IMG/VR virus record: IMGVR_UViG_3300024258_000005 | Direction: 5' to 3' (one strand) | Origin: a virus | DNA: 64,000 bases | In this document: positions 37,131 to 59,300 of the stretch, piece after piece | How positions within the stretch are numbered: position 1 is the stretch's first letter | Layout of the letters: each line of letters begins with the position of its first letter | Notes under the pieces: model-generated | Database searches by the model: none | The model's input: only the letters and a program-made list of their open reading frames with translations | Told to the model about the DNA's origin: nothing | Program-made: the position numbers and the translations under genes

Positions 37131-37133
37131 TTA

Positions 37134-37156: not shown

Positions 37157-37166
37157 CTTAATTCTT

Positions 37167-37784
37167 CTAATTATAATTAATTTTGCTTATGTCTGGATAA
37201 TCTTCTGATGATCCAATTATGAAATCTTTAGTCTTTAATTGGTTTAAAATTAAAATACCTTTTGCTGCCTCATCTGGGGACATATACATATGATATCCCA
37301 TTATGATATTTTTTAAATCTTCTGAAGTTGTTACAGAGGAATCTCTACCATCATGAGTCATTCTTTTGAGCATTAAATAATCATTATAATTATCTAATAG
37401 AATTGCTCCACCTTTACCTATGTTTAATGTCTTCTTTTGTTGAAAACTTAAACATTGATATTGACTAGCAATATACATATTCTCTTTGAATCCAACAGCA
37501 CAATCATATATATCATATCCTAAGTTATATTTTTCTTCCCAAGTATAATCTACATAATCAAAATTAATTTGGTTATGTAAAAGCATTTGAGGAACACTAA
37601 GGTATGTTTTATTTGGAACAAAAAGCTTTGATGTACTTGTAAGTTCTTTTTTAAGTCTAAGTAACATTAAACATAAAAAGATTGCGTTTGTACATGAACT
37701 AGTTAGTACTACATAAGGAGCACATGTAAACGCTTGAAGTCTTTTTTCGAACATATCATTAAAATCATTATTGTTATTTATCAT
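37167..37784 (-). CDS. DegT/DnrJ/EryC1/StrS PLP aminotransferase, short (205 aa)
   Basis: SSCTNAIFLCL, DCA (PLP Asp), LSFQQKKTLNIGKGGAIL (catalytic Lys). Confidence 0.88.
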   Translation of the reverse strand: MINNNNDFNDMFEKRLQAFTCAPYVVLTSSCTNAIFLCLMLLRLKKELTSTSKLFVPNKTYLSVPQMLLHNQINFDYVDYTWEEKYNLGYDIYDCAVGFKENMYIASQYQCLSFQQKKTLNIGKGGAILLDNYNDYLMLKRMTHDGRDSSVTTSEDLKNIIMGYHMYMSPDEAAKGILILNQLKTKDFIIGSSEDYPDISKINYN

Positions 37785-37785
37785 A

Positions 37786-40530: not shown

Positions 40531-40539
40531 TTAATTCCT

Positions 40540-41463: not shown

Positions 41464-42410
41464 ACGAAATCCAATCCACTAATCTCAATCATCTTTTTAG
41501 TCTTAGCTTCACATAAGAAACAATCAGGATATGTAAATTCAAAGATTTTAGTATAATCAAATATATAATCTTTATGTAATTTAGTTGGATCATCACAAAG
41601 GAAATCATCTTTTGATTCAGGAAATTCCATACTAATATAACAGTAATGCATTTGACCAAATTGATTAATATGCATCTTTTTTGTATTGAATGCTTTACAT
41701 TCAATTGTTGCAGCATCACCAACTTTCTTACGACGATTGAATAATGTATTAATTGCATTCTCTCTAGTAATTAAAGGACTTATCTCTTTGGATACTTCCT
41801 TAACATGTTCAGTTAAACGTCTTCGTCCTTCTGTTCCAACAATATAACTATGAGAAAAACCTTTTACAATATCATTCATTGCTTCACTTTTTAAATCTTC
41901 TGTGTTGTATTTGAATTCAATTATTTGAAGGATATCTCTATTAGAATGTAATTTAAATGCTTTGGCATTATTTAGAATTTTACTAAGATCACTACCTACT
42001 CTATATTCAGCATTAACTTCTTGTGAACTTCCACATAATGTAAATGTACAAGAGCTTCTTTCATGTCCTTGTTTAAAAAGCTTTCCAAGAGATTCCCAAT
42101 ATTCAGTACTTTGTAATGAACCATTAGAAAACATATCAATATGTATATTTCTAGAATTAAAGTACTCAATAAGTTCTGGCAATTCTGGATATAATAATGG
42201 TTCACTAATAGCTCCAGCTAACATAATTCTAGTTAAATTTGGAAAGAAATCTAATTGTTTGATAATATCTTTTACTGGTCTAACATTCTTCTTTAATAAG
42301 TGTTGAGCATGAGAATAATTTCTTGTACATAAAGGACATTGTAAATTACATGTACCTGTTAAGTCTATCTCAAACTCTTTTATATCACTTGTTGTTAATG
42401 TTTTTAACAT
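41457..42410 (-). CDS. Radical SAM protein, twitch-like (CPLC group, 2)
   Basis: TCNLQCPLCTRNY; C-terminal ECKAF...GQMHYC...DCFLCE. Confidence 0.9.
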   Translation of the reverse strand: MLKTLTTSDIKEFEIDLTGTCNLQCPLCTRNYSHAQHLLKKNVRPVKDIIKQLDFFPNLTRIMLAGAISEPLLYPELPELIEYFNSRNIHIDMFSNGSLQSTEYWESLGKLFKQGHERSSCTFTLCGSSQEVNAEYRVGSDLSKILNNAKAFKLHSNRDILQIIEFKYNTEDLKSEAMNDIVKGFSHSYIVGTEGRRRLTEHVKEVSKEISPLITRENAINTLFNRRKKVGDAATIECKAFNTKKMHINQFGQMHYCYISMEFPESKDDFLCDDPTKLHKDYIFDYTKIFEFTYPDCFLCEAKTKKMIEISGLDFVC

Positions 42411-42412
42411 AA

Positions 42413-43249
42413 CTATCTTCCTTTTAAATGTAATGCTAATTCAGATGTATCTGATTCAGCTTCTGCTAACCTATATATTTTATTATCACTTAATATCTTT
42501 GAATTATTCTTACTACATTCCCAGCAATGTTTATCACCAAAATTCTTAAAAAGACTACAAGGATTTAACTTATTATCAGAACTTAGTAATGCGAAATTAT
42601 ATTCCTCCGCAGGACACTCTTTGGTGATATCTTCTCTATTCAAAGTACTATATGCTTCTGATACTAACTTGGGTAAATGTATTTCACTATCTAATTCAAA
42701 ATGTTCACTGACTGGTAAAGTATGAAAATACTCAGCCTTGTATTTATTAAATCTACTTCTATCATCATCTTTGTTATAATTAAATACAATATAGTTTAAT
42801 ATGCCTTTTTTAGAATACAGGTTAATGATATCTAATCGTCTAAGAACTGTATTTAGATTACTACCTACTCTATATTTTTCATGAAGTTCTTGAGTACTTC
42901 CACATACAGTTAAATATATATGACCGTTAATGCCTTTAAATAACATACCAAGTTTACGATAATACATATCATCATGAGTGTCACCATTAATAAATAATGA
43001 TACTTCTATATCGCGCATTTTTAAGTATCTTAAAAGTGGCACAAGTTTCTTATATAGAGTCGGTTCTGATGTGGGACCAGCCAGAGTAACATACTTAAGA
43101 TCTTTTAAGTTTTCTAATCGTTCAATTAAAACATTATAATCTAATGTTTTATTATCCGTTAATTCAGGATGAGTTTGTCTTATACATAATGGACATTGTA
43201 AATTACATATATTATTTAACTCTATTTCTATTCTTGTTATTTCTCTCAA
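42413..43249 (-). CDS. Radical SAM protein, twitch-like (CPLC group, 3), TTG start
   Basis: ICNLQCPLC; AGPTSEPTLY; C-terminal ECP...LNPC...HCWEC. Confidence 0.9.
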   Translation of the reverse strand: MREITRIEIELNNICNLQCPLCIRQTHPELTDNKTLDYNVLIERLENLKDLKYVTLAGPTSEPTLYKKLVPLLRYLKMRDIEVSLFINGDTHDDMYYRKLGMLFKGINGHIYLTVCGSTQELHEKYRVGSNLNTVLRRLDIINLYSKKGILNYIVFNYNKDDDRSRFNKYKAEYFHTLPVSEHFELDSEIHLPKLVSEAYSTLNREDITKECPAEEYNFALLSSDNKLNPCSLFKNFGDKHCWECSKNNSKILSDNKIYRLAEAESDTSELALHLKGR

Positions 43250-43259
43250 AAGATTTCCT

Positions 43260-43886
43260 TTAAATGTAAACTATATTATCAAAATCTTTTTCAGTTATCC
43301 ATCTCAATTGACTTTCGATTGTTGCATAAGTTCTATAATTTTTTAAAAGTAGTTTGTGATTAGCTTTGCTTAATTGAGGAGTATAATCTTCTAATGATAA
43401 TGAACCAGGAACTATATGAAATAATCTATTATTGTTATCAAGAAATGATTCTAAATTATGAAAGTTATTATCTGTTACAACAATCATATATTGAACATTC
43501 CCTGGTAAATCTTTTATTATCTCAGTATCTAAATTTTCAGAAGCATGGTATAAAATACTATTGAACTTATCAATTAAACTTGGATACTTCTCTAAGAATA
43601 ATCCATTAGTATTTAATGATAAATTATAGTCTTCAAATTCCTCAAGTAAATATAATATTTTTTCTAAGCTTAATGTTCCAACTTCGCCACCAGATAAAGT
43701 AATATTATAATCATTGTATTTCTCATGAACTAATTTAACTTTATTTTGTAATTCAATAGAACTTATAGCTGGTTGATTATGAGTATCAACACAACAATAT
43801 TCACAATTCCAATTACATTTATAAGTAACTATAATTTCAAGTTCTTTCTCATTAGCTTTCATAAAATCTAAATTCATTCCTTCCAT
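43260..43886 (-). CDS. Minimal radical SAM protein (DTHNQ group, 1)
   Basis: KCNWNCEYCCVDTHNQ; SGGE; NTNGLFLEKYP; 208 aa. Confidence 0.9.
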   Translation of the reverse strand: MEGMNLDFMKANEKELEIIVTYKCNWNCEYCCVDTHNQPAISSIELQNKVKLVHEKYNDYNITLSGGEVGTLSLEKILYLLEEFEDYNLSLNTNGLFLEKYPSLIDKFNSILYHASENLDTEIIKDLPGNVQYMIVVTDNNFHNLESFLDNNNRLFHIVPGSLSLEDYTPQLSKANHKLLLKNYRTYATIESQLRWITEKDFDNIVYI

Positions 43887-44578
43887 TATTTGTCCTTTGT
43901 TCTAAGTGAAACACAGTTTTCAAAATCATCTGATTCAAGAAACAATAAAGGTGCATGTGGTAAGAATAACCTATCTTTATATTTTTGATATATTTTAAAA
44001 CCTAATTTTCTATCAAGACCAGATTGATATACCTCTTTAACATAACCAGCATTAGCACCAATAACAGCAAATTGAAATTGAGGATACTTATTTAAATACC
44101 ATTCAATATCTTCAAATGAATCTTTATTTGTTACCACTAGTTGATAAATAAAATTATCATTTACAGGAATATGATCAAAGTGATATAATTTAATTTCTTT
44201 TCTTGATCTAACATCTTGTACTGTATGATAGAGAACATCGCTTATGTATTTAACAACTAAGTCAGGATACTTCTCTAAAAATAGCCCATTTGTATCAACT
44301 GTGATTACACAGTTCTTTTCTTTTAGGATTTCACAATACTTAATAATAAGATCTTTGGATACCATTCCTGGTTCACCACCAGCAAACGAAACAATAGTAT
44401 TATTTGGTACTTTAGCTAATTGATTCATAACAGAAGCATCATCTATCTGTTCATCTTGATTATGTGTGTCTGCACAACAGTACCAACAATCCCAATTACA
44501 TTTAAAAGTTAAATCAACATTGTAATGTATACTTGTTATCTGTTCAAAGTCTATCTTCTCTTCTTGCGTTTCTTGCAT
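43886..44578 (-). CDS. Minimal radical SAM protein (DTHNQ group, 2)
   Basis: KCNWDCWYCCADTHNQ; AGGEPG; DTNGLFLEKYP; 230 aa. Confidence 0.9.
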   Translation of the reverse strand: MQETQEEKIDFEQITSIHYNVDLTFKCNWDCWYCCADTHNQDEQIDDASVMNQLAKVPNNTIVSFAGGEPGMVSKDLIIKYCEILKEKNCVITVDTNGLFLEKYPDLVVKYISDVLYHTVQDVRSRKEIKLYHFDHIPVNDNFIYQLVVTNKDSFEDIEWYLNKYPQFQFAVIGANAGYVKEVYQSGLDRKLGFKIYQKYKDRLFLPHAPLLFLESDDFENCVSLRTKDK

Positions 44579-44579
44579 T

Positions 44580-45143
44580 TTAATTTCCTTTTAATAAATG
44601 ACTTATACTATCCCCGTGTACTTTATAGTTCTTGATTATATATAATGCATTCTTATTTGATAAACTATTTCCATTGACCTCTTTCATACTTGAAACAAAA
44701 AATTGAATATTATAGTTATCATAATACCAATCAAGCGCAAGAAAATTTGAATCATTAACCAACAACATATATGTAATTGGAACACTGATATCAAATAATT
44801 GTATTTCTTTTAACTCTTCTATATGCTCTATACAATGATATAAAATATCATCAACATATTCTTCTACTATCTTTGGATACTTCTCTAAGAATAAACCATT
44901 TGTGTTTAGAACAATCTCACAGTTCTTTTCTTTAAGTAATTTAAAGTACTCAAGAATATCTTCTTCATTAACAGTACCAGGTTCACCACCTTCAATATGG
45001 ACTGAACACCCTTCTGGAATATTCTCAATACATTTAAGTACTTTCTTTTTAGTAGCTTTTGAACTACTTTGATTATGTGTATCAACTATACAATAATTAC
45101 AATGCCAATTACAAACATAAGTTATAGGTAAGAAACAATTCAT
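44580..45143 (-). CDS. Minimal radical SAM protein (DTHNQ group, 3)
   Basis: VCNWHCNYCIVDTHNQ; EGGEPG; NTNGLFLEKYP; 187 aa. Confidence 0.9.
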   Translation of the reverse strand: MNCFLPITYVCNWHCNYCIVDTHNQSSSKATKKKVLKCIENIPEGCSVHIEGGEPGTVNEEDILEYFKLLKEKNCEIVLNTNGLFLEKYPKIVEEYVDDILYHCIEHIEELKEIQLFDISVPITYMLLVNDSNFLALDWYYDNYNIQFFVSSMKEVNGNSLSNKNALYIIKNYKVHGDSISHLLKGN

Positions 45144-45760
45144 CTAAACCCCATTACTTTTACATTTTGATCAACTGATGTATTTTCACCAAGTAGTTGC
45201 AAGATAGACTCTTTTGGAATTATATCTTTAATTTCATTATAGAGTTTAAATGCATTCTTAATACTTAGACTTGTTAAGTTTTGATTTTCATTCTTTCTTG
45301 CTCTATGAACATGAATAGGTAAATCAACATTGAGTAAGAAATCTCTAACAAGATGAAAATTAGTATCATCTGCTATGATAACATAATCCATAGGTACATT
45401 GATAATAGGCATATATACATCGTAATTAGTTAAATCATCTTGTACATGATAAAAGAAGTATTCAATATATTTAACTAACTCAGGATATCTTCTAAAGAAG
45501 AGTCCATTAGTATCCATGTGAATATTACAGTTCTTTTCTAATAATCTTTGTATTATTTCAACTAAAAATTCTTTCTTAGCCATTCCTGGTTCACCACCAG
45601 CAAGAGAAACTAAACTTCCATTTTTTAATGAATCAATACTATCAAATATATCTTGAGGTTTAGGTTCATCTTGATTATGTGTATCAACTATACAATATGA
45701 ACAATCCCAATCACACTTAAAAGTAATTAGTAAACAGTATTTTACTTTAACTTCTTCCAT
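45140..45760 (-). CDS. Minimal radical SAM protein (DTHNQ group, 4)
   Basis: KCDWDCSYCIVDTHNQ; AGGEPG; DTNGLFFRRYP; 206 aa. Confidence 0.9.
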   Translation of the reverse strand: MEEVKVKYCLLITFKCDWDCSYCIVDTHNQDEPKPQDIFDSIDSLKNGSLVSLAGGEPGMAKKEFLVEIIQRLLEKNCNIHMDTNGLFFRRYPELVKYIEYFFYHVQDDLTNYDVYMPIINVPMDYVIIADDTNFHLVRDFLLNVDLPIHVHRARKNENQNLTSLSIKNAFKLYNEIKDIIPKESILQLLGENTSVDQNVKVMGFR

Positions 45761-46644
45761 ATTATTTCCTTTAAAATGTTGATTATATTATCATCTTTAG
45801 TAAGTTCTACCTGATTGAGATTCTTTAGATCTTCTATGCGATATTTCAAACCAAGATCAGTATCCAAATAATCAATATTTAGATACTCAACATCAATACC
45901 GAAGTATTGACATTCTGCTATCATTCGTGGAGAACAATCCCATTTTCTCGAAATAGGAGTATAAATATATTTAGATATATTTATAAATTCTTCATAAGGT
46001 GTTCTTTCAATTTGACATATGTTAGATAATGAATCATAATAATCATTGTCTGTCAGTAATAAATAATTACCCGGATTACTTAAAATATAATCCTTAACTA
46101 CATCAAGTTCTAAAATTCGACAATTACCAGTTAGATACATTAATATTTTATCCGTTCTAATTGGTGATTTCAATTTACTAAATAAGATCTTTTTCTTATA
46201 ATCAATACCATTTACCTTTACTTGTTCATAGACTCTTTGGTCTTGTAACACATGAAGCTTAGGGTTGACATTATTTTTTATTTCTTTGTTTCCACATGCG
46301 AATGTAAAAACATTATCTGATAGATATGTTACTAAATTCATAGTATTTATATCTCCATCCATAAAGAATATATTCTTACATTTAATCAATGTAGGATGAT
46401 AATTATTAAATGTAGTAACGCTTAATAACTTTTCAACTTCTTGTTGAGTGAATGTGTACTTCTTTATAACAGTACGAAAATCTTCTTCTGATAGACCTAT
46501 AAATAGTACTCGGGTATCAAAAACATCTTTTAGAATATAATAGTAATCTATCAATTCAAAGATATGGCCACATATATTGTGACCATTATTATTCCAGGTA
46601 TAAGTTAATATTAACTCACCTTCTAGCATTAATATCTTTTTCAT
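45742..46644 (-). CDS. Possible GT-B-fold glycosyltransferase-like protein A
   Basis: C-terminal WDCSPRMIAECQYFGIDV resembles the GT4 nucleotide-binding helix motif (ExFP-x-x-x-x-EA-x-x-x-G-x-PV). Confidence 0.45.
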   Translation of the reverse strand: MKKILMLEGELILTYTWNNNGHNICGHIFELIDYYYILKDVFDTRVLFIGLSEEDFRTVIKKYTFTQQEVEKLLSVTTFNNYHPTLIKCKNIFFMDGDINTMNLVTYLSDNVFTFACGNKEIKNNVNPKLHVLQDQRVYEQVKVNGIDYKKKILFSKLKSPIRTDKILMYLTGNCRILELDVVKDYILSNPGNYLLLTDNDYYDSLSNICQIERTPYEEFINISKYIYTPISRKWDCSPRMIAECQYFGIDVEYLNIDYLDTDLGLKYRIEDLKNLNQVELTKDDNIINILKEIIWKKLK

Positions 46645-46647
46645 TTT

Positions 46648-47472
46648 TTAATCTTTTAATATTGTTTGTACCATTAAATCATTTTTGTCTAATGTGTATT
46701 TTTGTAATTGACCATCTTTGATATCTTTTTGGCGTAGTGTAGTGCTATCTTCAATGGTAGTTCTTTCTTCAATTATAATTGGAATATTGTACCATGCTGC
46801 TTCTACTATAATACGATTATTTGTATCTAAACCGATATGAACATAAACAATTTGGTCTATTATATTAAATAGATTTTTAATTATTTTGATATCACTCTTC
46901 ATTAGAATATTCTTTAAATTGTATTTCTCAGCAATTACAGCAATTTCACAACTATCACTCTTTCCCTTATTTACATAACTTAAGAATGTTGTTTCCGTTT
47001 TACAATTTTCAATTTGTTTAAAAATACTAAAGTTCAACTTCAAAGTGCTCTTAATATCAAATTTTTGATAATCATAATAACCAAAATATGTGGTACCATT
47101 CGGGCTTCTATAATTATCATGAGTTTCATTACTATAAACAAAATGTTCACCTCGAACAAAACCTCTTAATCGTTTATAAGATGATACATCAACGAATAAA
47201 GCTTTTCTAACATTATAAGTATACATCTGTACAGTAGTACAGAATTGTATATCAATTTCTTCAATATCGTATTTATCTTTAATAGCATTAAGTGAAAGAA
47301 TTTCATCCTCTTTTAATTTACGCTTAGCAACAATATATAAAGTACATAATGAATGTTGTTGTAGTAAATAAAAATATTCAAATGCATAATAAAAAGAACC
47401 GTTTATTTTGTTATGATCATTTATATAATATACAACCGCATTATGAGATTGTATATGATTAGGATTTATCAT
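46648..47472 (-). CDS. Possible GT-B-fold glycosyltransferase-like protein B (paralog of A)
   Basis: LDTNNRIIVEAAWYNIPIII; N-terminal INGSFYYAFEYF parallels ICGHIFELIDYY of protein A. Confidence 0.45.
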   Translation of the reverse strand: MINPNHIQSHNAVVYYINDHNKINGSFYYAFEYFYLLQQHSLCTLYIVAKRKLKEDEILSLNAIKDKYDIEEIDIQFCTTVQMYTYNVRKALFVDVSSYKRLRGFVRGEHFVYSNETHDNYRSPNGTTYFGYYDYQKFDIKSTLKLNFSIFKQIENCKTETTFLSYVNKGKSDSCEIAVIAEKYNLKNILMKSDIKIIKNLFNIIDQIVYVHIGLDTNNRIIVEAAWYNIPIIIEERTTIEDSTTLRQKDIKDGQLQKYTLDKNDLMVQTILKD

Positions 47473-47480
47473 CCTACTTC

Positions 47481-48086
47481 CTATGAAATGTCGTTTAGAT
47501 ATTTCGACATGAATGTAGCATATAGTTCATCAACTTTTGATTCATCAGTTGCTAATCTAATCTCTGAAAAATATTCAGTGTATTTCTCTTCTAAATAAGA
47601 ACTTCTAGCAATTTCATCTCTAGCATTTAAATACATCTCAAGTTTATCAATTAAAGCATCATCACCTGTTTCAAGTATTTTGAGATATGTTTCTTCTTTA
47701 TTATCATCATGAATAAAGTATCCATTATCACAAAGAATATTATTGATATTAATATATTGATACATCATTAGTCCAGAAACGTTTGCTTGCTGGTGTGTAA
47801 CCAATTGGCGTACTTTTTTAAGATATATACTTTTGTATAATTCTAACTCATTATTTACATCAACAATGATAAGATCATGTACTTGTATATCAATATTTTT
47901 ATAATCTTTTATAATTCTAACTATTTTATTATTTGATATATGTTTCTTTATTTCACTTGCAGCAAAGGTGCTTAAACCTAAGAAACCTGTGTGGCTCTCA
48001 AACTCTTTATTGTGTGATGCAGTTAAATATTCTATTTCAAAATATGTACCACAATCAATGACTGCTGCCATTTCAAATACTTTCAT
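47481..48086 (-). CDS. Hypothetical protein, 201 aa, helical C-terminus (possible fibre-assembly/accessory factor)
   Basis: ORF track, RBS AAGGA; GYFIHDDNKEETYLKILETGDDALIDKLEMYL. Confidence 0.55.
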   Translation of the reverse strand: MKVFEMAAVIDCGTYFEIEYLTASHNKEFESHTGFLGLSTFAASEIKKHISNNKIVRIIKDYKNIDIQVHDLIIVDVNNELELYKSIYLKKVRQLVTHQQANVSGLMMYQYININNILCDNGYFIHDDNKEETYLKILETGDDALIDKLEMYLNARDEIARSSYLEEKYTEYFSEIRLATDESKVDELYATFMSKYLNDIS

Positions 48087-48108
48087 TTATATTCCTTTTT
48101 ATTCCTTT

Positions 48109-49035
48109 TTATTTTTCGTAACCATCGCATCGAAGAATGAATTCACAATCTTTACATGAACGAGGTTTATCGTAAGAAGCTATCCTATTAGTTATAGCTG
48201 TTTCTAACATTGACTCTACTGTTATATCCTGAACTGTGGTTAAATCAAATGTTTGAATATTCCAATCAGTTAGATCATATATATGATCTAACGTACTAAC
48301 GCAGTATTTTTCATATCCTTTCATAAAGCAGAAAGGAATATATCTAACAGTCACAGGAACGATATCTTTATCGATAAAGATCATTATCTTAGGAGATACT
48401 TTCTGGTAATCTAAATAATCTAATTTATGTGATGATTCCCATCTATTTAAAGGTAAGAAGTTTAACTGTTGAATTTTAACACCACATCTTATTAGATATT
48501 TTATAATTCTAGCATAATTACGACCATCAAAATCATTTTGAACAGTGCAATTAATTCGAATATCCATATCTAACTCTTGAGCATTCTTAATTGCTTGAAT
48601 TATCTTTCTAAACGCTTTATGATCAACTTTCTCATTATGCGATTTAGTATTCCAACCGTGTAAACTGAATAATATTTCAGATAAGCCATGATCTTTAGCT
48701 TCTTTTAGTTTATCAATATCACTGAAACTAATACCATTTGTAAGCATAGCTATTTTATCAAAGTTTTTACACATATCTAAGATTGTTAAGAACTCAGGAT
48801 GTATAGAACTTTCACCACCTGATAAATCAATACTTGTCATACCAGAAGCTTTCAATAAATTAATTTCATTCTCAATGATACTAAGTTTTCTAAAAGGATC
48901 TTTTAAATTACCTTGATAGTAACAGAATTCACAATTTAAATTACAAGTAGTTCCAGTATTTAATCTACCTCTTAAACATATCGGTTTATCTGGTAGATCA
49001 TTAATTTTGGGCTTTATTATTTTATTTAAATTCAT
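48109..49035 (-). CDS. Radical SAM protein with HxsC-like C-terminal Cys cluster
   Basis: TCNLNCEFC; LSGGES; IPFC...KPRSCKDCEFILRCDG; 4-nt overlap with the Cys-rich S74 gene. Confidence 0.9.
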   Translation of the reverse strand: MNLNKIIKPKINDLPDKPICLRGRLNTGTTCNLNCEFCYYQGNLKDPFRKLSIIENEINLLKASGMTSIDLSGGESSIHPEFLTILDMCKNFDKIAMLTNGISFSDIDKLKEAKDHGLSEILFSLHGWNTKSHNEKVDHKAFRKIIQAIKNAQELDMDIRINCTVQNDFDGRNYARIIKYLIRCGVKIQQLNFLPLNRWESSHKLDYLDYQKVSPKIMIFIDKDIVPVTVRYIPFCFMKGYEKYCVSTLDHIYDLTDWNIQTFDLTTVQDITVESMLETAITNRIASYDKPRSCKDCEFILRCDGYEK

Positions 49036-49859
49036 ATTATTCTGCTGAATATATCTCTATAAAGAGCATCATAATCGACTTGAAAATACTCTTCTGTATT
49101 TATAACATAAATTGATAAACCATCTCTGATTAAATCTTGAGCCATTACACCAAATTGTTTTTCTTTTGGTAAATCAAGTCCTAGTTCAGTACCATCAACA
49201 TAATAAAATGAATAGAATTTAATAGGAGTTTTACTCTTAATTTTATTCGATGCTACTGTTCCAATATGATTTATTTCAATCTTTAATCGTCTATCGCTAT
49301 AGTTACAACCACAATCTGTATTACATGTACATACATTATTACAAGCACAATCTGAATTACATAAACAGTTATCCGCAATACTAATATAATTGTTTATAAT
49401 ATTATTATAAAAAGCTGCTTCTATTTCTGCTGGACGAGATATTGAAGCTATACCAAAAGTACTAAATGAATTAATAACAGATACCATTTGATCCCATTCG
49501 TATTTATAAGCAACATTTCCTTTAATAGCATTTAAAGTAATTTTAGGAATATACCATGATTGATTACTTGCTTGCTTGTATCTAGGATCAGGATTACTTA
49601 CTCCCCTAGACCAATTATTAGCAATACTATTTAATGAGTGTTTTAAACTTGTAGTGTCTTCTGTACAAACTGTATCAGTAATTCCTACAAAATTTAAAGA
49701 GGGGAAAGCTGCTCCTTGATTAGGTGCATGGTGAGCCGCACAATCAATTCTTCTATCTTGTATAGCAGTAGCGCCTCCATATACTACTTGACCTTCTATT
49801 GTAGCTGGATTAGCTACAAGGGTTGGAGTCGTTTCATCTGTTATATTATTAACTGCCAT
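49032..49859 (-). CDS. Short fibre-like protein with a (CxCNxx)4 core followed by a peptidase S74 intramolecular chaperone
   Basis: NCLCNSDCACNNVCTCNTDCGCNY (49299-49367), then SDRRLKIEI...FYSFYY...GVMAQDL...YFQVDYDAL (S74 pattern). Confidence 0.85.
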   Translation of the reverse strand: MAVNNITDETTPTLVANPATIEGQVVYGGATAIQDRRIDCAAHHAPNQGAAFPSLNFVGITDTVCTEDTTSLKHSLNSIANNWSRGVSNPDPRYKQASNQSWYIPKITLNAIKGNVAYKYEWDQMVSVINSFSTFGIASISRPAEIEAAFYNNIINNYISIADNCLCNSDCACNNVCTCNTDCGCNYSDRRLKIEINHIGTVASNKIKSKTPIKFYSFYYVDGTELGLDLPKEKQFGVMAQDLIRDGLSIYVINTEEYFQVDYDALYRDIFSRII

Positions 49860-49892
49860 TTTTATTCCTTTAATTCCTAATTTTCTTAGGAA

Positions 49893-50996
49893 TTAAATTC
49901 CTAAGTGTTTTTGCACGGTTCTATCTATTTTTCCGAATGCTTTATATATTCCACATAAGTCATCTTTTGGATCATGATACTTTTCTTCATATGTTTCTTT
50001 TGTTGATGTATCATGATTTACAATTGGACATTGATAACATACAGTTGCTGTACAACCTTTACAATGTTCAGGAACAAGCATAATTTCTTTATGTCTTTCA
50101 TGTGAAGTCATAACAGCTTCAACCGGATTATCAATATGCCCAATTATAAAATCTTCTTTATTTTCAGAATATAACGCTCCATGACAAACTAAAAGATTAC
50201 CATCAATATCAACATTAGCTATATTCGTACCAGCAGAACAAACATTGCGTTCACCTGTTCCAAACCATGACCAAACGAATCTACCATTAGCTTTATAATA
50301 TTCTATTTCTAGCTTAGCAATCTTTAAAAATTGTTCATTAACTATCTTTAAGAACGGTTCATCTATTACATATTTGTTAGTGTACTCTAATGTAGGAGAA
50401 TAGTTAAAAGTGGGATATTTTTCAATTAGTTCTTTAAAATGTAACCAATTCTCTAATAGATTAGGCATTTCATGAATTGCTAATGTACTCTTTATACTGA
50501 GTTTAATATCTGGAAATTTATCCATTAAGTAATGAACTGAGCTTAGGACTGTACTTGATGTACCTTCACCTTTATGATCAACTCTTTCTAAATCATTATT
50601 AAGACCGTCATAACTTATTTGATAACTAAATCTTGAAGTGTCATCTATAAATAATTTAAAGTTATTAATAATTTTCTCAATATTTTTAACATTAAAACCA
50701 TTAGTATACATGAAGAAATCAACAGGAGAATCTTTAAATTCATTAATCAATCTAATAATCATTTTAGAATTTAGAGTAGGTTCACCACCCCAAAAATTAA
50801 TAGTTACGCCGTTGAACACTTCTAGGAATTTCTCACCATTAAGCATCTCATGAACTGATTTAATAATATCATCTGTATGTAACTGAGGATTCTTATTTTG
50901 AAGCTCTTCCCCTTCGAAACAATAGGTACAAGCCATATCACACTTTTGTGTAGTTGTTACTTCATATGCGAAATATCTTTTTTGTCTTTGATTCAT
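49893..50996 (-). CDS. Radical SAM/SPASM protein (anSME/peptide-maturase-like)
   Basis: KCDMACTYC; FWGGEPTL; TNG; ISYDG; CSAG...GNLLVCHG...CKGCTATVCYQCP...DLC. Confidence 0.92.
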   Translation of the reverse strand: MNQRQKRYFAYEVTTTQKCDMACTYCFEGEELQNKNPQLHTDDIIKSVHEMLNGEKFLEVFNGVTINFWGGEPTLNSKMIIRLINEFKDSPVDFFMYTNGFNVKNIEKIINNFKLFIDDTSRFSYQISYDGLNNDLERVDHKGEGTSSTVLSSVHYLMDKFPDIKLSIKSTLAIHEMPNLLENWLHFKELIEKYPTFNYSPTLEYTNKYVIDEPFLKIVNEQFLKIAKLEIEYYKANGRFVWSWFGTGERNVCSAGTNIANVDIDGNLLVCHGALYSENKEDFIIGHIDNPVEAVMTSHERHKEIMLVPEHCKGCTATVCYQCPIVNHDTSTKETYEEKYHDPKDDLCGIYKAFGKIDRTVQKHLGI

Positions 50997-51241
50997 GATT
51001 TCTCAATTTGACCAAGAATATCATCATAGTCATCGGCACTTAATTTAGAAGCATCTAATTTAGAATTTTCTTCCATTGCAGTTAAAGTAACTTTTGCCAT
51101 ATTAAATATAGTAGCAGCTGCGTCATTAAAACCAGCATCGTCTAATATATTACCAGCTTGAACTAAATGCCAAATTGAAGCCTTTAATTGTACTTCTAAA
51201 GGCTCATCTTTTAATGGAGTCTCTTTATTTTCTTCATTCAT
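50993..51241 (-). CDS. Small acidic helical protein, 82 aa, coupled to the SPASM enzyme
   Basis: 4-nt overlap with the rSAM start; RBS AAGGA. Confidence 0.6.
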   Translation of the reverse strand: MNEENKETPLKDEPLEVQLKASIWHLVQAGNILDDAGFNDAAATIFNMAKVTLTAMEENSKLDASKLSADDYDDILGQIEKS

Positions 51242-51251
51242 TTTTATATCC

Positions 51252-51767
51252 TTAAATTTGTATTTTATATTGTTCTGATAATGTTTCTAACACATCTAAC
51301 TTTTGTAAATTATATATTGGAACGTTGTAAGTATCAGCTACACCAATAGCTAAACCCGTTCCACCTGTATCTTTACCGACTTCTTCTTTATTTGTAGCAC
51401 CATCTATAGTCCAACATATTAAGAAATCACTTGGACGATCTAAACCTATTCCTAGAACTTGATGAACATTTCTAGCCATGAGTCTTTTAACTGGTGTTTT
51501 TAAATATTTCCAACTCCGATGATGTTCAGATGCTATATCAAATGCTTGAGGCCAAATATTAAATAAACTTGATGTGTTATTATTAAAACCTTTCCATGGC
51601 AGAAATATATCTTTCTTATCAATATCTTTTTCAAATGCTAAATCTGCTCCATCTGCTCCACCAGATCTTAGAATATATGTATCTTTAAATACTTGTGAGA
51701 AGCTTGACATAAATTCTAAAATTGCTGTTGGAGTCTTTCTTGCGCCTATCCCTGTATAGTAATTCAT
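51252..51767 (-). CDS. SLOG/DprA-like nucleotide-binding protein
   Basis: YTGIGARKTP...LRSGGADGADLAFE...GGTGLAI motifs. Confidence 0.8.
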   Translation of the reverse strand: MNYYTGIGARKTPTAILEFMSSFSQVFKDTYILRSGGADGADLAFEKDIDKKDIFLPWKGFNNNTSSLFNIWPQAFDIASEHHRSWKYLKTPVKRLMARNVHQVLGIGLDRPSDFLICWTIDGATNKEEVGKDTGGTGLAIGVADTYNVPIYNLQKLDVLETLSEQYKIQI

Positions 51768-52312
51768 GACTTATATTCTAACGGCATTGTAGCTATGCTA
51801 ATAATATGATCAATTGTTCCATCATCAACATCAACAACAATATATGGAATTGAATTTTTCATTAATAAATGAGCAATTGTATCATCTAAAAGTTTAGCAC
51901 CTTCCAAATCTTGTTCTCTACCATACTCTTCGTATAGAGCTTCTTTATTTCTTCTAAGAAGAATATTAACATTATTATATCTATTAAATTGTTCTTTTAG
52001 ATAAGCATTAAATTCAGCAATTGGTATCTTAGTTTCACAACAATATGACATTCCCATTATGAATGGACTATCATGTACAGCATAATCAACTTTATTAAGA
52101 AGTCTATACATTCTATGATGCTGTTCACCTGCTACCAATAGTTGGTCAGAAAGTCTAAACCAATCTTCTGAATATACTAATTCTTTAGCAAACTCTTGAG
52201 TCATATCAACTTTCTTTCCTAGCATTTTTAATCTATCAAATACAGCAGCAGCTGTTCTACTTTTACCAACTCCTGGGCCTCCGAATAGGTTTATATTTAT
52301 TGCACTTTTCAC
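51764..52312 (-). CDS. P-loop NTPase/kinase (AAA_28, NadR-like)
   Basis: NLFGGPGVGKS Walker A; EFAKE; VHDSPF. Confidence 0.82.
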   Translation of the reverse strand: MKSAININLFGGPGVGKSRTAAAVFDRLKMLGKKVDMTQEFAKELVYSEDWFRLSDQLLVAGEQHHRMYRLLNKVDYAVHDSPFIMGMSYCCETKIPIAEFNAYLKEQFNRYNNVNILLRRNKEALYEEYGREQDLEGAKLLDDTIAHLLMKNSIPYIVVDVDDGTIDHIISIATMPLEYKS

Positions 52313-53289
52313 ATATTTTCCTTTTCAAATAAAATTAACAGAGTATGTCGTGTTCTAGATATTAATTCTGTAATCTCTTTATTAATGTACTTGTAGATCT
52401 CACATAACTCAGCGATAGGAGCTTTGTTTTTAATTTGCTCATAAGTACACCCACGATGACAAAATTGACTTATGTCGCATTTATCACACACATCAGTTAC
52501 TATATATTTATTAGTTAATAATGTTGTAGAGTCTCTCTCGAAACGCTCGCATGCAACTATTTTCTTCTGAGGAGTAATTGCCCAGTAGCTTGTTCCTACT
52601 CCACAATCTTCTTGTTCATGACCTTTCATAAAGAATTCTAGAACAGGATTGAGATATGTTTTAATTAATCCTGGTATCTCATTGTAAGTCTTATATTGTT
52701 TAAAGTCACCAAGATAATTAATGTATTTAGTAAACTCTTTATTAAATGTTTGAACTTGTTCATCATTCCATGAACCAATGTCTCTAACAAGAGTCATATC
52801 AGGAACTAATCCTACATCTATAAGAGCTTCGTGTTGTTTAATAAGAATATTATCTTGCATATCAATTCCATTAATCATACAATGACCATGAGTTGCACCT
52901 GCTTCAATTAATGATCGAATATAGATTCGATGATTCCCTCGATGAGCTTCTTGAAAAATACCATCATATGATATAGTGGTTCTAATATTAGGATGCTCCA
53001 CAATTTTTTTAACTGTTTTATTATATATTGTCCCATTTGTAGTTATTACAATTTGAATCAAATTTGGATGAGATTCTAATTTATTTATTATATATTCTAC
53101 AATATCTAATTGTAGAAAAACTTCCCCACCGAATATACTAAACACAAAAGGCTCAGTTAAATTCAACATAAATTCATCAAAGTACGCTTCGTCTAATCTA
53201 AGTTTATTATTGACGTCAACATTACAATATGTACAATTCATATTACATAACTCTGATACCACATAATGCCAATGTTTTACATCTTTCAT
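52309..53289 (-). CDS. Radical SAM/SPASM protein
   Basis: LCNMNCTYC; FGGE; TNG; SYDG; CGVG...IVACERF...CDKCDISQFCHRGC...LCEIY full SPASM Cys set. Confidence 0.92.
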   Translation of the reverse strand: MKDVKHWHYVVSELCNMNCTYCNVDVNNKLRLDEAYFDEFMLNLTEPFVFSIFGGEVFLQLDIVEYIINKLESHPNLIQIVITTNGTIYNKTVKKIVEHPNIRTTISYDGIFQEAHRGNHRIYIRSLIEAGATHGHCMINGIDMQDNILIKQHEALIDVGLVPDMTLVRDIGSWNDEQVQTFNKEFTKYINYLGDFKQYKTYNEIPGLIKTYLNPVLEFFMKGHEQEDCGVGTSYWAITPQKKIVACERFERDSTTLLTNKYIVTDVCDKCDISQFCHRGCTYEQIKNKAPIAELCEIYKYINKEITELISRTRHTLLILFEKENM

Positions 53290-53522: not shown

Positions 53523-55421
53523 TTAAACCTTAACCTCTACATAACCACCTTTCGAAGGAGTAATAGCTATACCAATTAATGGTTCACTACTATAATATGA
53601 ATCTTTAGATTGTGATCTAGTCACACCTATAACTTTTCCGAACTCTTTTGGATCTGGGAAAATATACATACCTCTAACTATATCATGATTTGTCTTAACT
53701 GGGATCCGTCCTTTTAAGGCAACAAAAATATAATCTTTTGTTCTAACTGAAGCATTAAGTTCAAGCCCTGGTGAAGTAGAAACAACACCCGCTAATGGTA
53801 ATTCAGGATTATACAAAGTAACTTCTGTATCTATACCAATACTAAGAACCGTACCTGGCTCATATTGTAAATCACTTTCGTATTTTTCAGCTAAATCTGC
53901 ATACTCTGCAGATGTCGCAACACCTTCAAATTTACCACCATCTGTTTTAAAATCAAATGCTGTAACTCTGCCTGAGAAAGTACCATTTGCACCATTCTTA
54001 AGAGAATATGTATTATTTAAATCTAAATCACCACCTAATAATAATCCACCTGCTGCAGTAATTTTACCAGTACTTGTAAAAGTACCAGCATTTTCAAAAT
54101 TACCATGTACATACATATTTCTCAAAACATCTAAATCTCTTCCAAGATAAGTATCTTTACCAGTTATTTGATGAATCTCATCGTTGAATGTTGCTTCGCC
54201 TGTTAAAGTCATATCACCTGCATTCGTAACAATAAATTTTACATCACCAAGCTTCTCAATAAAAATTGAATTTTCAGTTTGAATGTCACCAACTACTGTT
54301 AAGTATCCACCTACTGTTAAGTATCCACCTACTGTTAAATAATTACCAACTGTAAAGTATTCACTGATAGTACCAAAACCATCAAGTATATTAAGATTAC
54401 CTAATCCAGTAATTTCGATATCTCCAGCTGCTGTAGCGATACCAGTAGTAACATCTAATCGGCCATCACCAGTACTAATATCACCTGTACCTGTACTAAT
54501 ATTACCAGCTCCTGTATTAACAAAACCATTATTAGTTGAAGTAACACCATCTCTAATAAAACTTAAACCTCTAGTAATATCTAAATTACCATTTGAAGCA
54601 ACTATATTACCAATGTCAGTTCTGATTTCACCATCAACTGTTGTAATATGACCTTGTCCACCAACATTAACAAAACCACCACCAGCATTACTTCTAAAAC
54701 CAGTATTAACATGACAATATCCAAGTGAACTTAGAATATTACCGTTTGTTGTTAATGAATTATCTGATGAATTGGTTGAATTAATAGTAACTTTTCCAGT
54801 AGTATCAACTTTAAAAAATGTTTGAACTTCAAATGTTCCAGGTAGATAAACTATATTAAAACGACTAGCATCACCAATAGTTAAAAGGTGAGTATTTTCA
54901 TTCATATTTAAAATAGTTTGATCTTTATACCACATTGATAAAGCATCAATATATAACCAATCTCTATTTACTTGAAGATTTTCTATATCGTAACCTGTTA
55001 AAAGCCCTTCTACATAAGTAGGCGATTTAATAGGACCGGTAAAGTATTCTAATTTTTTTAGATGTAATATTTCAGCAGTATCTTCTATGATGGCATCAGC
55101 TCTACGACTTTCTTTTCGAAGTTGACCTAAAGCAAAATAATTTTTAGATAATTCATCAACTGTTAAATCTTTAAGAGCACCAACATTTATTTCAAGTTGA
55201 AGCATATCAGCTCTAAGTAATTCATTTGAATTATGTGTAACTTCTAATAGTTTTGTAACTATTATTTTGTAATCATTTTCTAGCTTATACGATAATTCGT
55301 CACTCTGCTCATAATAAGCAGCAACATCATTCGTAAGGCCTTGAATATTACTTTTTAATTTAGCCTCGTTAAATTTTAGGGCATTTAAAGTTGCTACTTC
55401 TTGCAGTATTGACTTTGACAT
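53523..55421 (-). CDS. Tail fibre with a C-terminal peptidase G2-type intramolecular chaperone
   Basis: Coiled-coil N-terminus, Gly-rich triple-beta repeats, SAEYADLAEKY...PGTV...GVVSTSP...VALKGRIPVK. Confidence 0.85.
   Translation of the reverse strand: MSKSILQEVATLNALKFNEAKLKSNIQGLTNDVAAYYEQSDELSYKLENDYKIIVTKLLEVTHNSNELLRADMLQLEINVGALKDLTVDELSKNYFALGQLRKESRRADAIIEDTAEILHLKKLEYFTGPIKSPTYVEGLLTGYDIENLQVNRDWLYIDALSMWYKDQTILNMNENTHLLTIGDASRFNIVYLPGTFEVQTFFKVDTTGKVTINSTNSSDNSLTTNGNILSSLGYCHVNTGFRSNAGGGFVNVGGQGHITTVDGEIRTDIGNIVASNGNLDITRGLSFIRDGVTSTNNGFVNTGAGNISTGTGDISTGDGRLDVTTGIATAAGDIEITGLGNLNILDGFGTISEYFTVGNYLTVGGYLTVGGYLTVVGDIQTENSIFIEKLGDVKFIVTNAGDMTLTGEATFNDEIHQITGKDTYLGRDLDVLRNMYVHGNFENAGTFTSTGKITAAGGLLLGGDLDLNNTYSLKNGANGTFSGRVTAFDFKTDGGKFEGVATSAEYADLAEKYESDLQYEPGTVLSIGIDTEVTLYNPELPLAGVVSTSPGLELNASVRTKDYIFVALKGRIPVKTNHDIVRGMYIFPDPKEFGKVIGVTRSQSKDSYYSSEPLIGIAITPSKGGYVEVKV
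54293..54338. repeat. 18-nt tandem repeat encoding YLTVGG units
   Basis: CTACTGTTAAGTATCCAC x2 plus a partial third copy. Confidence 0.85.
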
Positions 55422-56328: not shown

Positions 56329-59300
56329 TTATTGAACTATAATATCTACTTTACCTTTAACAACACTACCATCAGATTCATCTGCACCATCTGTACCAGT
56401 ACCGATTGAAATAGTACCATCAGTGATATAATAGTCAAATGTATCATTACCAGTATATCCTAAAGTAGGCTCGTAAACAATTTCACCAGGAACAGCAGGA
56501 ACTTGTCCCATAATACCTTGAGTAAAACTAATTGTACCATGGGCTGGTTGAGTAACTGACATTATTACAATTTCTTCATTACCTGTATGACCATCATTAG
56601 ATAAAGGATTTAAAATATTATTAGCTGAACTAACAGAAACAACATAATTATCAGGAACTGTATAAGGACCAGTAACTTCAACAGTAATAGTTCCAAAACC
56701 AATTTTACCTTCTGTATCTGTAATAGAATATCCGAAGATATCTGGACCAGCATACTCAGTATCAGGAATATATGAAACACCACCTGTAATTGTAATTACT
56801 CCACTTGTTGCACCACCTAATGAATTAAGTAAAGTATAAGCACTCATATCAACATTACCTGGAATCATTGTAAATAGTTTATTATTTTCAACTACAAATG
56901 GAATATTTTGAACACCATCATTTAGTACATAATTTTCTAAATCAATATCATCTAGTATAGTAGGTTCAAATAAGAATCTAGTAGATAATATACTTGTACC
57001 ATGATTTGCATTATTAACAGAATACATACTAATAGTATCACCTGTACCATGACCATCATTAACCATAACATCAATGAATTGAGCACCTGAATTTTTAGAA
57101 ACTATAAATCCATCAGGACTAGTATAAGGACCACAAGGAGAACTAATTAAGTTAGTAGCTAAGCCACCATAAGTAGTTTCAAAATCATCACAACCATATC
57201 TATATGTACCAATTTTTTGATTAGCATAACCGCCATCATCAAAGTTTATATCACCTTCAATAATAGGAGATATATTAGGGAAATATTCAGCACGAATTTT
57301 ATTATATTCAGTTGTATAATTACTAATAAAAGTATTATTTGCTGTCACATAATTTTCAATTCTATTTACTTCACCTAATGCAGAAACTTGTTCGATAATA
57401 GTACTTTGTTCATTATTCTGAACAGCTTCATAAAGAGTCTGAGCTTTAATTAAATCAGAATTTAATCTATTAACTAAAATAAGACGCTTCTGTAATCTAT
57501 CTGTAATATATGTATAGTTAAAGATTACACGTTGGTAATCATCCATCTGAAATATATCTAATTTATTACTATCTGCATTCATAATATTACCAGCAGCTAA
57601 ATCTTTAGTTGTTTCAGCTAAATCAATTGCAGCTGAGTTGTCCCCTAATTCAATAGTATCAATAATATTTTGTTCAGTTTCTCTATCAATTAAAATATCA
57701 ATACCTGCATTATATAAATTCATTTCTTCTAACATAGCTTTTAATTTATTAATCTCAGTTACTTGTGTAAAATAAGATTCTTTTGCTACTAGTTGTGAAT
57801 CACTTATAGTTGTAATATTATCACCAGCTATATCAACAACACTACCAACACCTGAATCATAATTAAAAATATCATTATTTATAAGTTGATAATTTTCAAA
57901 GTTATCAATATTATTATAATCATCTCCAAGCTTATATCTAGCAATTTGCAACTCTAAAGTTAAAATATCAAACTGATTAGTAGTTCCAGATACTTTAAAA
58001 GAAGCAATAAAATTACTCAATTCAGTTTCTTTTGCTTGTAAAAGAATTTCAATATCAGCAATAGATTCATTTATCATATTACGAATATTTTTAAGATTAT
58101 TAAATCCTAGGACATTAGTTTTAATATCTAATTGTTGACCAGTACTAAATGTTCCCATATCTATAAAGTCTAATCCAAGATCAGTATCAATAATATTTTT
58201 AGAATTAAAACCTTCTGCAAAATATTTTACTAAAATATTGTACATTAGATATGTGAATTCATAAGAATACAAAGGGTTTGAATAGTTAAAGAAGAACGCA
58301 TTAACCTCGGGAGCATTGTTATCACCGACACGTATAGTAGTATCTGCAACTTTATTTTGTAATTTAATATTTCTTTCCTGAAGAGTATTAATTTCTATTG
58401 TAGCATTAATAACTGATTCATTTGCTTCATATTCTCTTTGGTATTCATCATATGTTCCAAAAAGACTAATTAAATTTTGTGTACCTATTTCAGCACTATG
58501 GTCAATATTTAAAACAATTTGATTACAAGCTGTAGCATATCCAACTCTAACAGAACTTGGATAATAACGGTTTGAAATTCTACCAGAGCTATCACTTAGA
58601 ACATAGTTATCAATTGTACGAATTTGATTTTGTGATTCAAATAAACTAGTAGCATCTTCTAAGAAGTAATGTGTACCAGGCACCATTGTTAAAAGTTGAT
58701 GATCAGGAGGAAGGTTGTATTTTACAGCATCTAATGTAATATAACCACCAGTATATATTAAGTGATTTCCTTCATTATATTCATTTAAATACATTCCAAT
58801 AACTTGACTAAACTTTTGTCTAGAAGCAACTGATCGTTTATATGTACCGGACTCATCATCAAAGTAACACATATCACCAGAACGAAGATCTTCTTCTTCT
58901 GAGAATTGTGGATCAGATGCTTTATGCAATTGTTCTTCCGCTACGGCAATAAAGTTTGCTGATGTTAATCCCATTGAACTATAAATTGCCCTTGACTGAT
59001 TACCAAAGTATTCGAAAAGTAGTTTATAATTTTGAATATAAAGTTTAGATAAATACTGAGGATCTATACCATTTACAATAGCACCAGGGGTTGCAGGATT
59101 TGATTGAATAATTTGACGAGCTTCTGTATTTTCATCATCTATTATATCAGAACTAGTAGCAAATGTAGCTATCAGTAATCCAGGCTTACCTGAAAATACA
59201 GTAGTTGAATTATTACCATCTAAACTCTTATCATTAAAATCACAACTTACAACATTAGAATCTTCAATACGAGGAAAATGTAAACTTGCATAATCGATAA

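Follow-up and report, generated by a model that had tools for sequence, protein, structure and literature searches.

The 64,000-nucleotide stretch of viral DNA analysed here (IMG/VR record IMGVR_UViG_3300024258_000005; hereafter, the window) is part of a contig of ~260 kb, is AT-rich (26–34% G+C) and carries nearly all of its genes on the minus strand, which is the strand of all the genes described below at 33490–59733. A T4-type portal gene was recognised by Pfam at 62101–63918, the closest cultured relatives are the Campylobacter phages of the CP220 group, and the genome is that of a giant T4-like phage. The region under study, 47481–53289, is the front half of an island of ~20 kb (window ~33490–53289), which contains ten genes for radical S-adenosylmethionine (SAM) enzymes, two GT-B-like proteins and sugar-nucleotide enzymes. 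In this region a radical SAM enzyme of the SPASM type is encoded 33 nt upstream of a gene for a protein with a cysteine repeat and a C-terminal Peptidase_S74 (S74) domain, and we are inclined to think, with some reserve, that the core of the island is a post-translational maturation system for this Cys-repeat, fibre-type protein. The eight open reading frames (ORFs) of a preliminary description of this DNA all lie on the minus strand, and their coordinates and order are as given there. That description had also taken three radical SAM enzymes bracketing the Cys-repeat gene as the limits of the system; this is contradicted by the extent of the island, in which seven further radical SAM genes were found at 40540–45760.

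The Cys-repeat gene encodes 275 amino acids (aa), consisting of the predicted mature part, residues 1–187, at 49299–49859, and of the S74 intramolecular chaperone domain, residues 188–275, which together with the stop codon occupies 49032–49298. Eight Cys are found within residues 165–185 with a strict 6-residue period, (C-x-C-N-x-x)4, followed by SDRRLK; apart from this core (49299–49367), no clustered CxC repeat occurs in any of the six frames of the 64 kb window. Both the repeat and the S74 domain, already noticed in the preliminary description, are real: PF13884 scored 28.6 bits (cut-off 22), a Ser188/Lys193 dyad is present, S188, D189, L192 and K193 do not vary among 21 sequences, and the S74 domain matched 3GUD (E 4e-4), 8JOV and 6F45 in the PDB. 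The N-terminus is disordered, with a conserved Cys40/His43 pair. In the AlphaFold2 (AF2) monomer (with a mean of 65 for pLDDT, the predicted score of the local distance difference test), helices were predicted at 66–88, 119–130 and 148–165, the S74 domain reached pLDDT 76–93 and the repeat stayed below 50; Foldseek comparison of this model with the PDB returned nothing under E 0.4. A tblastn search of the phage collection with the protein gave no match, nor did megablast with the whole region.

Seven close homologues (25–43% identity) keep all the core Cys and Asn, which are the only invariant residues among the core columns. The family plan consists of a short Cys/His N-terminus, a helical middle domain and C-terminal C-x-C-N units of 6–8 residues, repeated from 3 to ~28 times, with up to 90 Cys in some members; Asn follows the last CxC of the unit in ~86% of 162 units, and the repeat region is composed of 39% Cys and 18% Asn. 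Repeat proteins of 346–364 aa with 83–90 Cys (~25%) and 26–28 CxC motifs were observed downstream of three radical SAM genes in the loci numbered L088–L091 (6001–7095) and of two in L095 (5265–6305). The members devoid of S74 (P0007, L018, L026, L027, L054 and L056) end at ...C-N-Y or at most 3 residues past it; since this end coincides with the predicted Ser188 cleavage site, it is supported that the Cys core forms the mature C-terminus. On the other hand, the proposal that S74 is an obligatory follower peptide had to be abandoned, because the pairing of enzyme and repeat persists in the S74-less lineages, in which the chaperone is evidently dispensable. A third class of Cys-repeat proteins carries a ~12-residue S74 stub, Ser-Asp-x-Arg-Leu-Lys-x-x-Ile-x-Tyr-x, and then stops (L041:7094-7702, L048:7162-7716, L035:7140-7874, L039:7729-8286, L057:7031-7576 and L115:6133-6732); this stub is conserved, though too short for a chaperone.

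Upstream of the Cys-repeat gene lie the genes of two SPASM enzymes, one of 326 aa (52309–53289), the first maturase candidate, and one of 367 aa (49893–50996), the foremost candidate for modification of the Cys repeat, while a third radical SAM enzyme of 308 aa (48109–49035) is encoded downstream. With the radical SAM model PF04055 (cut-off 29.5 bits) the three proteins scored 38, 40.2 and 64 bits, respectively. The CxxxCxxC motif is made by C15, C19 and C22 in the 326-aa enzyme and by C19, C23 and C26 in the 367-aa enzyme, and each has seven auxiliary Cys conserved in at least 90% of its homologues (40 and 50 sequences, respectively). Their pattern in both, C..G..C / CxxCx5Cx3C / C, fits two auxiliary clusters. 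The Pfam SPASM model itself remained sub-threshold (16.6 vs 21.5 bits); nevertheless, PF04055 and the conserved seven-Cys pattern together confirm the two as SPASM radical SAM enzymes, as had been described. In a profile search the best PDB relative of the 367-aa family was CteB (5WGG, E 8e-19, chain residues 103–413), and the best NCBIfam models for the 367-aa enzyme were PapB (78.6 bits), CXXX-repeat (59 bits) and QhpD (54.8 bits, E 6e-15). PapB (NF047865) was also the best model for the 326-aa enzyme, at 65.4 bits. The cut-offs of these top models are 340–453 bits, and neither SPASM enzyme reaches the 340 bits needed for PapB membership; the match to the CrpC-type model (TIGR04463) was 29.2 bits vs a cut-off of 525, and that to the anaerobic sulfatase maturase model (anSME, TIGR03942) 36 bits vs 349. 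Thus, judging from these comparisons, the SPASM enzymes most resemble thioether-forming maturases, with CteB, PapB, CXXX-repeat and QhpD as nearest characterised relatives, yet they fall inside no curated family. No recognition element (RRE) of peptides made by the ribosome and modified after translation (RiPPs) was found in either SPASM enzyme: both start at most 20 residues before CxxxCxxC, and the alignment with CteB omits its chain residues 1–102, where we take the RRE of CteB to lie from its placement in the literature.

The genomic link between the SPASM enzyme and the Cys-repeat gene was evaluated in both directions. When viral contigs were searched with the 367-aa enzyme family, full-length homologues (26–40% identity) turned up at 41 loci, and in 36 of these the next ORF encodes a Cys-repeat protein (150–470 aa, 9–35 Cys); in the other five, the repeat gene is just upstream in one, 2.2 kb upstream in three Campylobacter phage records, and lacking in one short contig. 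The reverse search, with repeat proteins of the C-T-C-x-C-N-Y type, gave 29 loci, most with enzymes upstream. A radical SAM ORF ends at most 60 nt upstream of 37 of the 52 distinct Cys-repeat proteins, whereas four have no radical SAM gene in the examined flanks, three of them on contigs ending shortly after the gene. Moreover, when the contigs of six close relatives were looked up, the 367-aa homologue directly preceded the Cys/S74 gene in all of them, and a 326-aa-type enzyme is encoded upstream in most loci. The enzyme/repeat pair stays together as other genes move, the 308-aa gene being found after the 300-aa gene and the SLOG gene after the repeat gene, and it is also kept in the S74-less lineages, in the chromosome of Peredibacter and in a Bdellovibrionales metagenome-assembled genome (MAG). 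The co-occurrence already suspected in the preliminary description is therefore borne out, and by gene order the link is very strongly conserved.

Three upstream radical SAM genes were observed only with the three-Cys repeat type and never with the two-Cys type. An arrangement of one enzyme per Cys position would fit; many three-Cys loci, however, have just two upstream radical SAM genes. As for the spacer of the pair in the window, a perfect 9-bp hairpin, CTTAGGAAT-TTA-ATTCCTAAG, lies at 49885–49905, where it spans the stop codon of the 367-aa gene; the Cys-repeat gene starts 26 nt further on. Since no T-run follows it on the coding strand, it is not an obvious terminator, and it may set the ratio of enzyme to substrate expression. 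Scans for the T4 late-promoter motif, sigma-70 promoters and terminators showed no enrichment.

The island is not confined to viruses. When one genome per prokaryote species was scanned, the enzyme was found in the complete chromosome of Peredibacter sp. HCB2-198 (39% identity) and in the Bdellovibrionales MAG mentioned above (35%). The Peredibacter island is colinear with the window: it has the 326- and 367-types, the Cys-repeat gene, the 201-, 274- and 300-types, the 308-type and four more radical SAM genes, and continues with homologues of 39493–40530 (51%) and 37786–38610 (47%), DegT and an epimerase; a homologue of 34265–35290 (35% identity) is in the same order. The DegT gene was recognised by Pfam only, as BLAST against the DegT fragment of the window gave no match. 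The Peredibacter Cys-repeat protein has 199 aa and carries the S74 stub. The bacterial island lies between housekeeping genes (UvrD, thiolase, cytochrome b and multihaem cytochrome c), and the portal protein of the window, the only query used for this purpose, had no match in the Peredibacter genome. The island has 38–40% G+C vs 43–48% in the flanks, which suggests transfer. On this comparative evidence, the island is a self-contained transferable unit, of which the neighbouring sugar cluster is also a member, and its presence in a bacterial chromosome means that a virion is not required for its function. At the end of the low-G+C island we also observed a 356-aa protein (L178:12212-13282) in which the N-terminal methylation motif of type IV pilins is joined to a Peptidase_S74 domain (E 2e-16). 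In Bdellovibrio, from the same group of predators, phage-like chimeric fibres have been described, and were solved with an endosialidase chaperone as search model (PMC10769870).

The S74 domain and the tail-fibre-like gene upstream would place the Cys-repeat protein of the window in the virion, and a related observation comes from the Campylobacter phages. In the virion proteome of IBB_35, the product of gene 3-9 was reported, with 2.6% coverage, as a hypothetical protein whose mass is 60,318 Da (PMC3322345). IBB_35 encodes a 534-aa protein with 35 Cys and six CTCDCNY repeats, whose computed mass is 60,317 Da; because gene order and mass agree, we identify gene 3-9 with this protein, and a distant member of the Cys-repeat family is thus present in purified particles. 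The A3 family profile matched the CP220 orthologue of the repeat protein with E 4.8e-7. CP220 retains, scattered over its genome, the repeat protein gp140 and homologues of the 367-, 308-, 201- and 300-aa proteins, among which gp163 is 42% identical to the 308-aa enzyme, the 367-aa counterpart 28% identical, and the 201-aa homologue was matched with E 3.5e-27. This retention in the lack of adjacency argues for a shared function. Radical SAM genes number 11 in CP220 and 12 in CPt10, among them a module in which five stand together with an amidinotransferase gene, and the only function offered for them was 'boosting host metabolism' (PMC2853527); in the CP220, CPt10 and IBB_35 papers these genes are listed with no function assigned. 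Campylobacter phages CP220, CPt10 and IBB_35 therefore resemble the window in having homologues of the 367-, 308-, 201- and 300-aa proteins and a protein with six CTCDCNY repeats, but differ in that the genes are dispersed, and no link between the enzymes and the Cys-repeat virion protein is drawn in the papers (PMC2853527, PMC3322345). A more specific role of the repeat protein as receptor-binding tip, as previously suggested, is unsupported; the island occurs in a bacterial chromosome too, where its surroundings hold no virion genes.

Between the two SPASM genes lie three smaller ones, of which the last encodes an 82-aa acidic protein (50993–51241; 17 Asp/Glu vs 7 Lys/Arg). Its stop overlaps the start of the 367-aa enzyme in an ATGA, as had been noticed, and small acidic proteins of 65–126 aa are encoded directly before the 367-aa-type enzyme in at least 19 loci. 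On these grounds the 82-aa protein can be regarded as a genuine conserved component of the system, translationally coupled to the 367-aa enzyme. AF2 predicted three helices (15–35, 39–59 and 69–81; pLDDT 81.6) and zero strands; the RRE/PqqD fold for which it had been a candidate is therefore rejected, as the winged helix-turn-helix with its three-stranded sheet is missing from the model. The enzyme encoded ahead of the Cys-repeat gene in L016 (7920–9683), a locus of a more remote phage, has 587 aa, with ~190 extra N-terminal residues. This 190-aa extension is unrelated to the small acidic protein family by hhalign (E 0.5), so that there is no evidence of a fusion.

The other two genes encode a 182-aa P-loop AAA_28/thymidylate-kinase-like protein (51764–52312; AAA_28 E 1e-8, PHROG 2107 E 5e-14) and a 171-aa DprA-like protein (51252–51767; PHROG 768 'DprA-like', E 3e-48), which had no hit in Pfam and which we call SLOG because DprA belongs to that fold. 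The kinase gene was found only in L002, L006, L013 and L047, and the SLOG gene, placed after the Cys-repeat gene in L002, L006 and L013, is absent from the distant loci. Both had been counted among the members of the system; being missing from most loci, they are better regarded as accessory.

The start of the 308-aa gene overlaps the stop of the Cys/S74 gene in an ATGA, as expected, but its position right after the S74 gene is peculiar to the window phage, the gene being found after the 300-aa gene in relatives. Thus, from comparison of the loci, the 308-aa enzyme is a conserved island member, relocated in the window phage. It has one C-terminal set of four extra conserved Cys (C236, C294, C297 and C303). 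The label 'HxsC-like' given to it is not specific: it scored 50.7 bits vs a cut-off of 267.9 with HxsC (TIGR03977), three MoaA models scored higher, all sub-cut-off, and the region is devoid of a His-Xaa-Ser repeat gene. The 201-aa protein that follows (47481–48086; PHROG 25260, E 7.5e-16) comes after the Cys-repeat gene in nearly all loci; a profile search of PDB sequences found no relative of it, and an Atlas feature search found nothing.

Beyond the region, two paralogues of 274 aa (46648–47472) and 300 aa (45742–46644) are conserved across related loci. The Atlas model of the 300-aa protein reached template modelling (TM) scores of 0.62–0.66 to Glycos_transf_1 clusters, which offers a lead that the two paralogues are probably glycosyltransferase-like, with a GT-B fold; neither paralogue had a Pfam match, and the 300-aa family profile had no relative among PDB sequences. 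The seven further radical SAM genes (40540–45760), of 206, 187, 230 and 208 aa and three of 278–317 aa, were all recognised by PF04055, have matches to PHROG 13987, 1802 and 21308, and keep a colinear order in L006 and L013, as well as, in part, in Peredibacter. According to Pfam and synteny, sugar-nucleotide and other enzymes travel with the island at 33490–40530, namely conserved proteins of 345 and 274 aa, a DegT fragment, an epimerase/dehydratase and a protein with a UDP-Glc-dehydrogenase-like N-domain. A homologue of the dehydrogenase-like gene (33490–34272) directly precedes the 326-aa enzyme in most viral loci. Within this sugar-gene part a 238-aa protein (36227–36943) matched the Pfam model of Tad6, which inhibits type I Thoeris, with 91.8 bits (cut-off 27; E 5.5e-26), and is likely an anti-defence gene product.

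On the other side of the region, a 632-aa tail-fibre-like protein is encoded at 53523–55421, whose C-terminus matched PHROG 19602 'tail fiber protein' with E 4e-12, and homologues of 200–2000 aa precede the cassette in most related loci. In L097 (3–5930) and L100 (1208–5815), collagen-like fibres of 1535–1975 aa with Gly-Ser-Ala-Gly repeats have ends homologous to this protein. A 1134-aa protein with C-terminal Big_9 and Cadherin_5 domains (56329–59733), located between the portal region and the fibre-like gene, shows 58–64% conservation in L006 and L013; probably it is a further surface protein of the virion.

Considered as a whole, the earlier interpretation stands as regards the linkage, the kinship to thioether maturases and the mature Cys C-terminus, but not as regards the three-enzyme extent, the kinase and SLOG genes, the RRE, the need for S74 and the receptor tip. 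We consider it likely that the Cys-repeat protein is the substrate of the SPASM enzyme; to thioether formation on it we give an even chance. The latter suggestion comes from the kinship of the enzymes, the seven-Cys SPASM pattern, the fixed Cys-Asn spacing and the precedent of CrpC/CrpA. The order of events that we infer would start with the 275-aa protein, made of its N-terminal Cys/His region and helical domain, the (C-x-C-N-x-x)4 core and the S74 chaperone. The 367-aa SPASM enzyme would act on it, probably with the 326-aa SPASM paralogue and the coupled 82-aa helical protein: a core Cys would bind the open iron of the first auxiliary cluster of the enzyme, a residue close by would lose a hydrogen, the best candidate being the invariant Asn (at +3 from the first Cys of the unit, or at −3 from the next Cys), and thioether bridges of the ranthionine or sactionine type would form, one or more per repeat. 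S74 would then trimerise the protein and cut itself off at Ser188, so that a short trimeric fibre would remain, with the stapled Cys core as its free C-terminus. Further modification, of the Cys-repeat protein or of a partner, would presumably fall to the GT-B-like proteins, the eight remaining radical SAM enzymes and the enzymes of sugar-nucleotide metabolism.

The closest precedent is CrpC/CrpA of Methanococcus voltae (TIGR04463; PMC13692751, 2026), in which, as shown by mass spectrometry, CrpC installs thioethers on CrpA, a repeat protein of 28.8 kDa (PMC13692751). As in the window, a SPASM enzyme with seven auxiliary Cys, which leave an open iron on the first auxiliary cluster (PMC13692751), is encoded next to a protein-sized Cys-repeat substrate with an N-terminal recognition part, C-terminal Cys repeats and a fixed spacing from Cys to acceptor. 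The CrpA spacing is C-X-X-Q/D (PMC13692751), and in the NxxcB substrate N-x-x-C a Cys-Asn beta-thioether is made (PMC9389541); the C-x-x-N and N-x-x-C spacings of the CxCN units run parallel to these two, which would support the thioether reading. The differences are, however, considerable: the window enzymes reach 29 bits on TIGR04463 (cut-off 525) and have no RRE, the CrpA unit has 17 residues rather than 6–8, and here there are a self-cleaving S74 chaperone and a phage fibre gene context, with SPASM paralogues that number two or three and another seven or eight radical SAM genes. Phages are not mentioned in the CrpC paper (PMC13692751).

The ranthipeptide/SCIFF systems (CteB-CteA, PapB-PapA freyrasin, CXXX-repeat and NxxcB) provide the best sequence relatives of the 367-aa enzyme and share repeated Cys-acceptor motifs, with Asn a known beta-thioether acceptor in N-x-x-C. 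By contrast, their substrates are short secreted peptides with RRE-bound leaders, instead of a 150–530-aa protein with no RRE, protease or exporter seen, and the scores are 59–79 bits against cut-offs of 340–350. QhpD, which serves in the maturation of quinohemoprotein amine dehydrogenase, is a SPASM enzyme that makes intramolecular Cys-to-Asp/Glu thioethers in the protein subunit QhpC. It is similar in acting on a protein and is the third-best NCBIfam match (E 6e-15), but the match is 54.8 bits vs a cut-off of 453, QhpC is a non-repeat enzyme subunit and dehydrogenase genes of that kind are not found here. S74 endosialidase-type fibres, including those of Bdellovibrio (PMC10769870), have the C-terminal PF13884 domain with its Ser/Lys dyad; unlike the window protein, they are known without a Cys-repeat core or radical SAM partners, neither of which is mentioned in PMC10769870. 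A literature search for such a system in viruses found no description.

The protein could instead be built around a metal. T4 gp37 has His-x-His iron sites, of which the Cys repeat would be the thiolate counterpart, as a metal or iron-sulfur structural core or a metallothionein-like store; the radical SAM enzymes would then act elsewhere, for instance on an unusual sugar, and adjacency would stem from a requirement for iron and sulfur that they have in common, or from co-inheritance. The CxC spacing and the 39% Cys content are metallothionein-like, sugar genes (DegT, epimerase, UDP-Glc-dehydrogenase-like and GT-B-like) are present in the island, some Cys-repeat genes have no radical SAM gene nearby, and CrpA itself is a suspected metal binder (PMC13692751). 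However, the immediate neighbour of the repeat gene is a SPASM enzyme closest to peptide thioether maturases rather than a sugar-type enzyme, and the tight start-stop spacing is kept over more than 35 divergent loci. We thus regard this explanation as unlikely, and note that enzymatic cross-linking and metal binding can coexist.

Still less probable, in our opinion, is that the SPASM enzymes modify the Cys-repeat protein by another chemistry, such as conversion of Cys to formylglycine, epimerisation, or carbon-carbon or ether cross-links. SPASM enzymes do carry out all these reactions, and weaker matches to anSME, to darobactin and dynobactin maturases and to YhhB were seen, all matches being well under their cut-offs; the top ones, on the other hand, are to thioether formers. 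The target motif of anaerobic sulfatase maturases is Cys/Ser-x-Pro/Ala-x-Arg, which does not occur in the Cys core, and the sole aromatic residue of the core is the final Tyr187, which leaves few partners for carbon-carbon bonds; moreover, Cys and Asn alone are invariant there. Finally, an adjacency devoid of functional meaning, with gene order inherited in one phage lineage and the island passed to Peredibacter as a block, would agree with the fibre and other genes that the viral loci share and with the low G+C of the bacterial island (0.38–0.40 vs 0.43–0.48 in the flanks), but is very improbable in view of a pair that is intact while other island genes are reshuffled, a gene set kept in CP220 though dispersed, and a block that persists in a bacterial chromosome far from phage structural genes.

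Several points weigh against a maturation system for the Cys-repeat protein as proposed above. Every radical SAM score is far under the family cut-off, so that the chemistry cannot be read from membership; and, as neither the SPASM enzymes nor, by its predicted fold, the 82-aa protein provides an RRE, no substrate-recognition element was identified. Invariant Cys and Asn would also fit a metal-binding protein or an Asn-ladder beta-solenoid, and, with sugar and GT-like genes at hand, small molecules may be what some of the island radical SAM enzymes act on. It is a distant homologue (profile E 4.8e-7), with 2.6% sequence coverage, that provides the evidence from virions. As to the linkage, the viral loci may all belong to one broad T4-like lineage, so that synteny would be partly inherited, L040 has the enzyme with no Cys-repeat gene downstream, in L099 there is no radical SAM gene within 6 kb of the gene for a 54-Cys protein, and in L097 and L100 the repeat gene comes straight after the collagen-like fibre gene, with no radical SAM gene between.

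A broader proposal, which we advance tentatively and with less than even confidence, is that a mobile multi-radical-SAM island common to phages and predatory bacteria builds a new kind of surface fibre tipped with a thioether-stapled, possibly glycosylated Cys-x-Cys-Asn ladder, and that the radical SAM genes of Campylobacter phages, long without an explanation, actually serve this end. CP220-type phages can be cultured in the laboratory, so that the idea is directly testable. If true, this would be the first RiPP-type enzymatically cross-linked protein of a virus particle or fibre, a use of RiPP chemistry on a protein with a structural or adhesive role, and the stapling of whole proteins by SPASM enzymes, as in CrpC/CrpA, would extend to viruses and predatory bacteria. 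The repeat-plus-enzyme pair could also represent a compact module for protein needles resistant to redox changes and proteases. Lastly, it would explain the presence of ten or more radical SAM genes in the phages of Campylobacter and in many uncultured T4-like phages, which has been a puzzle since 2010.

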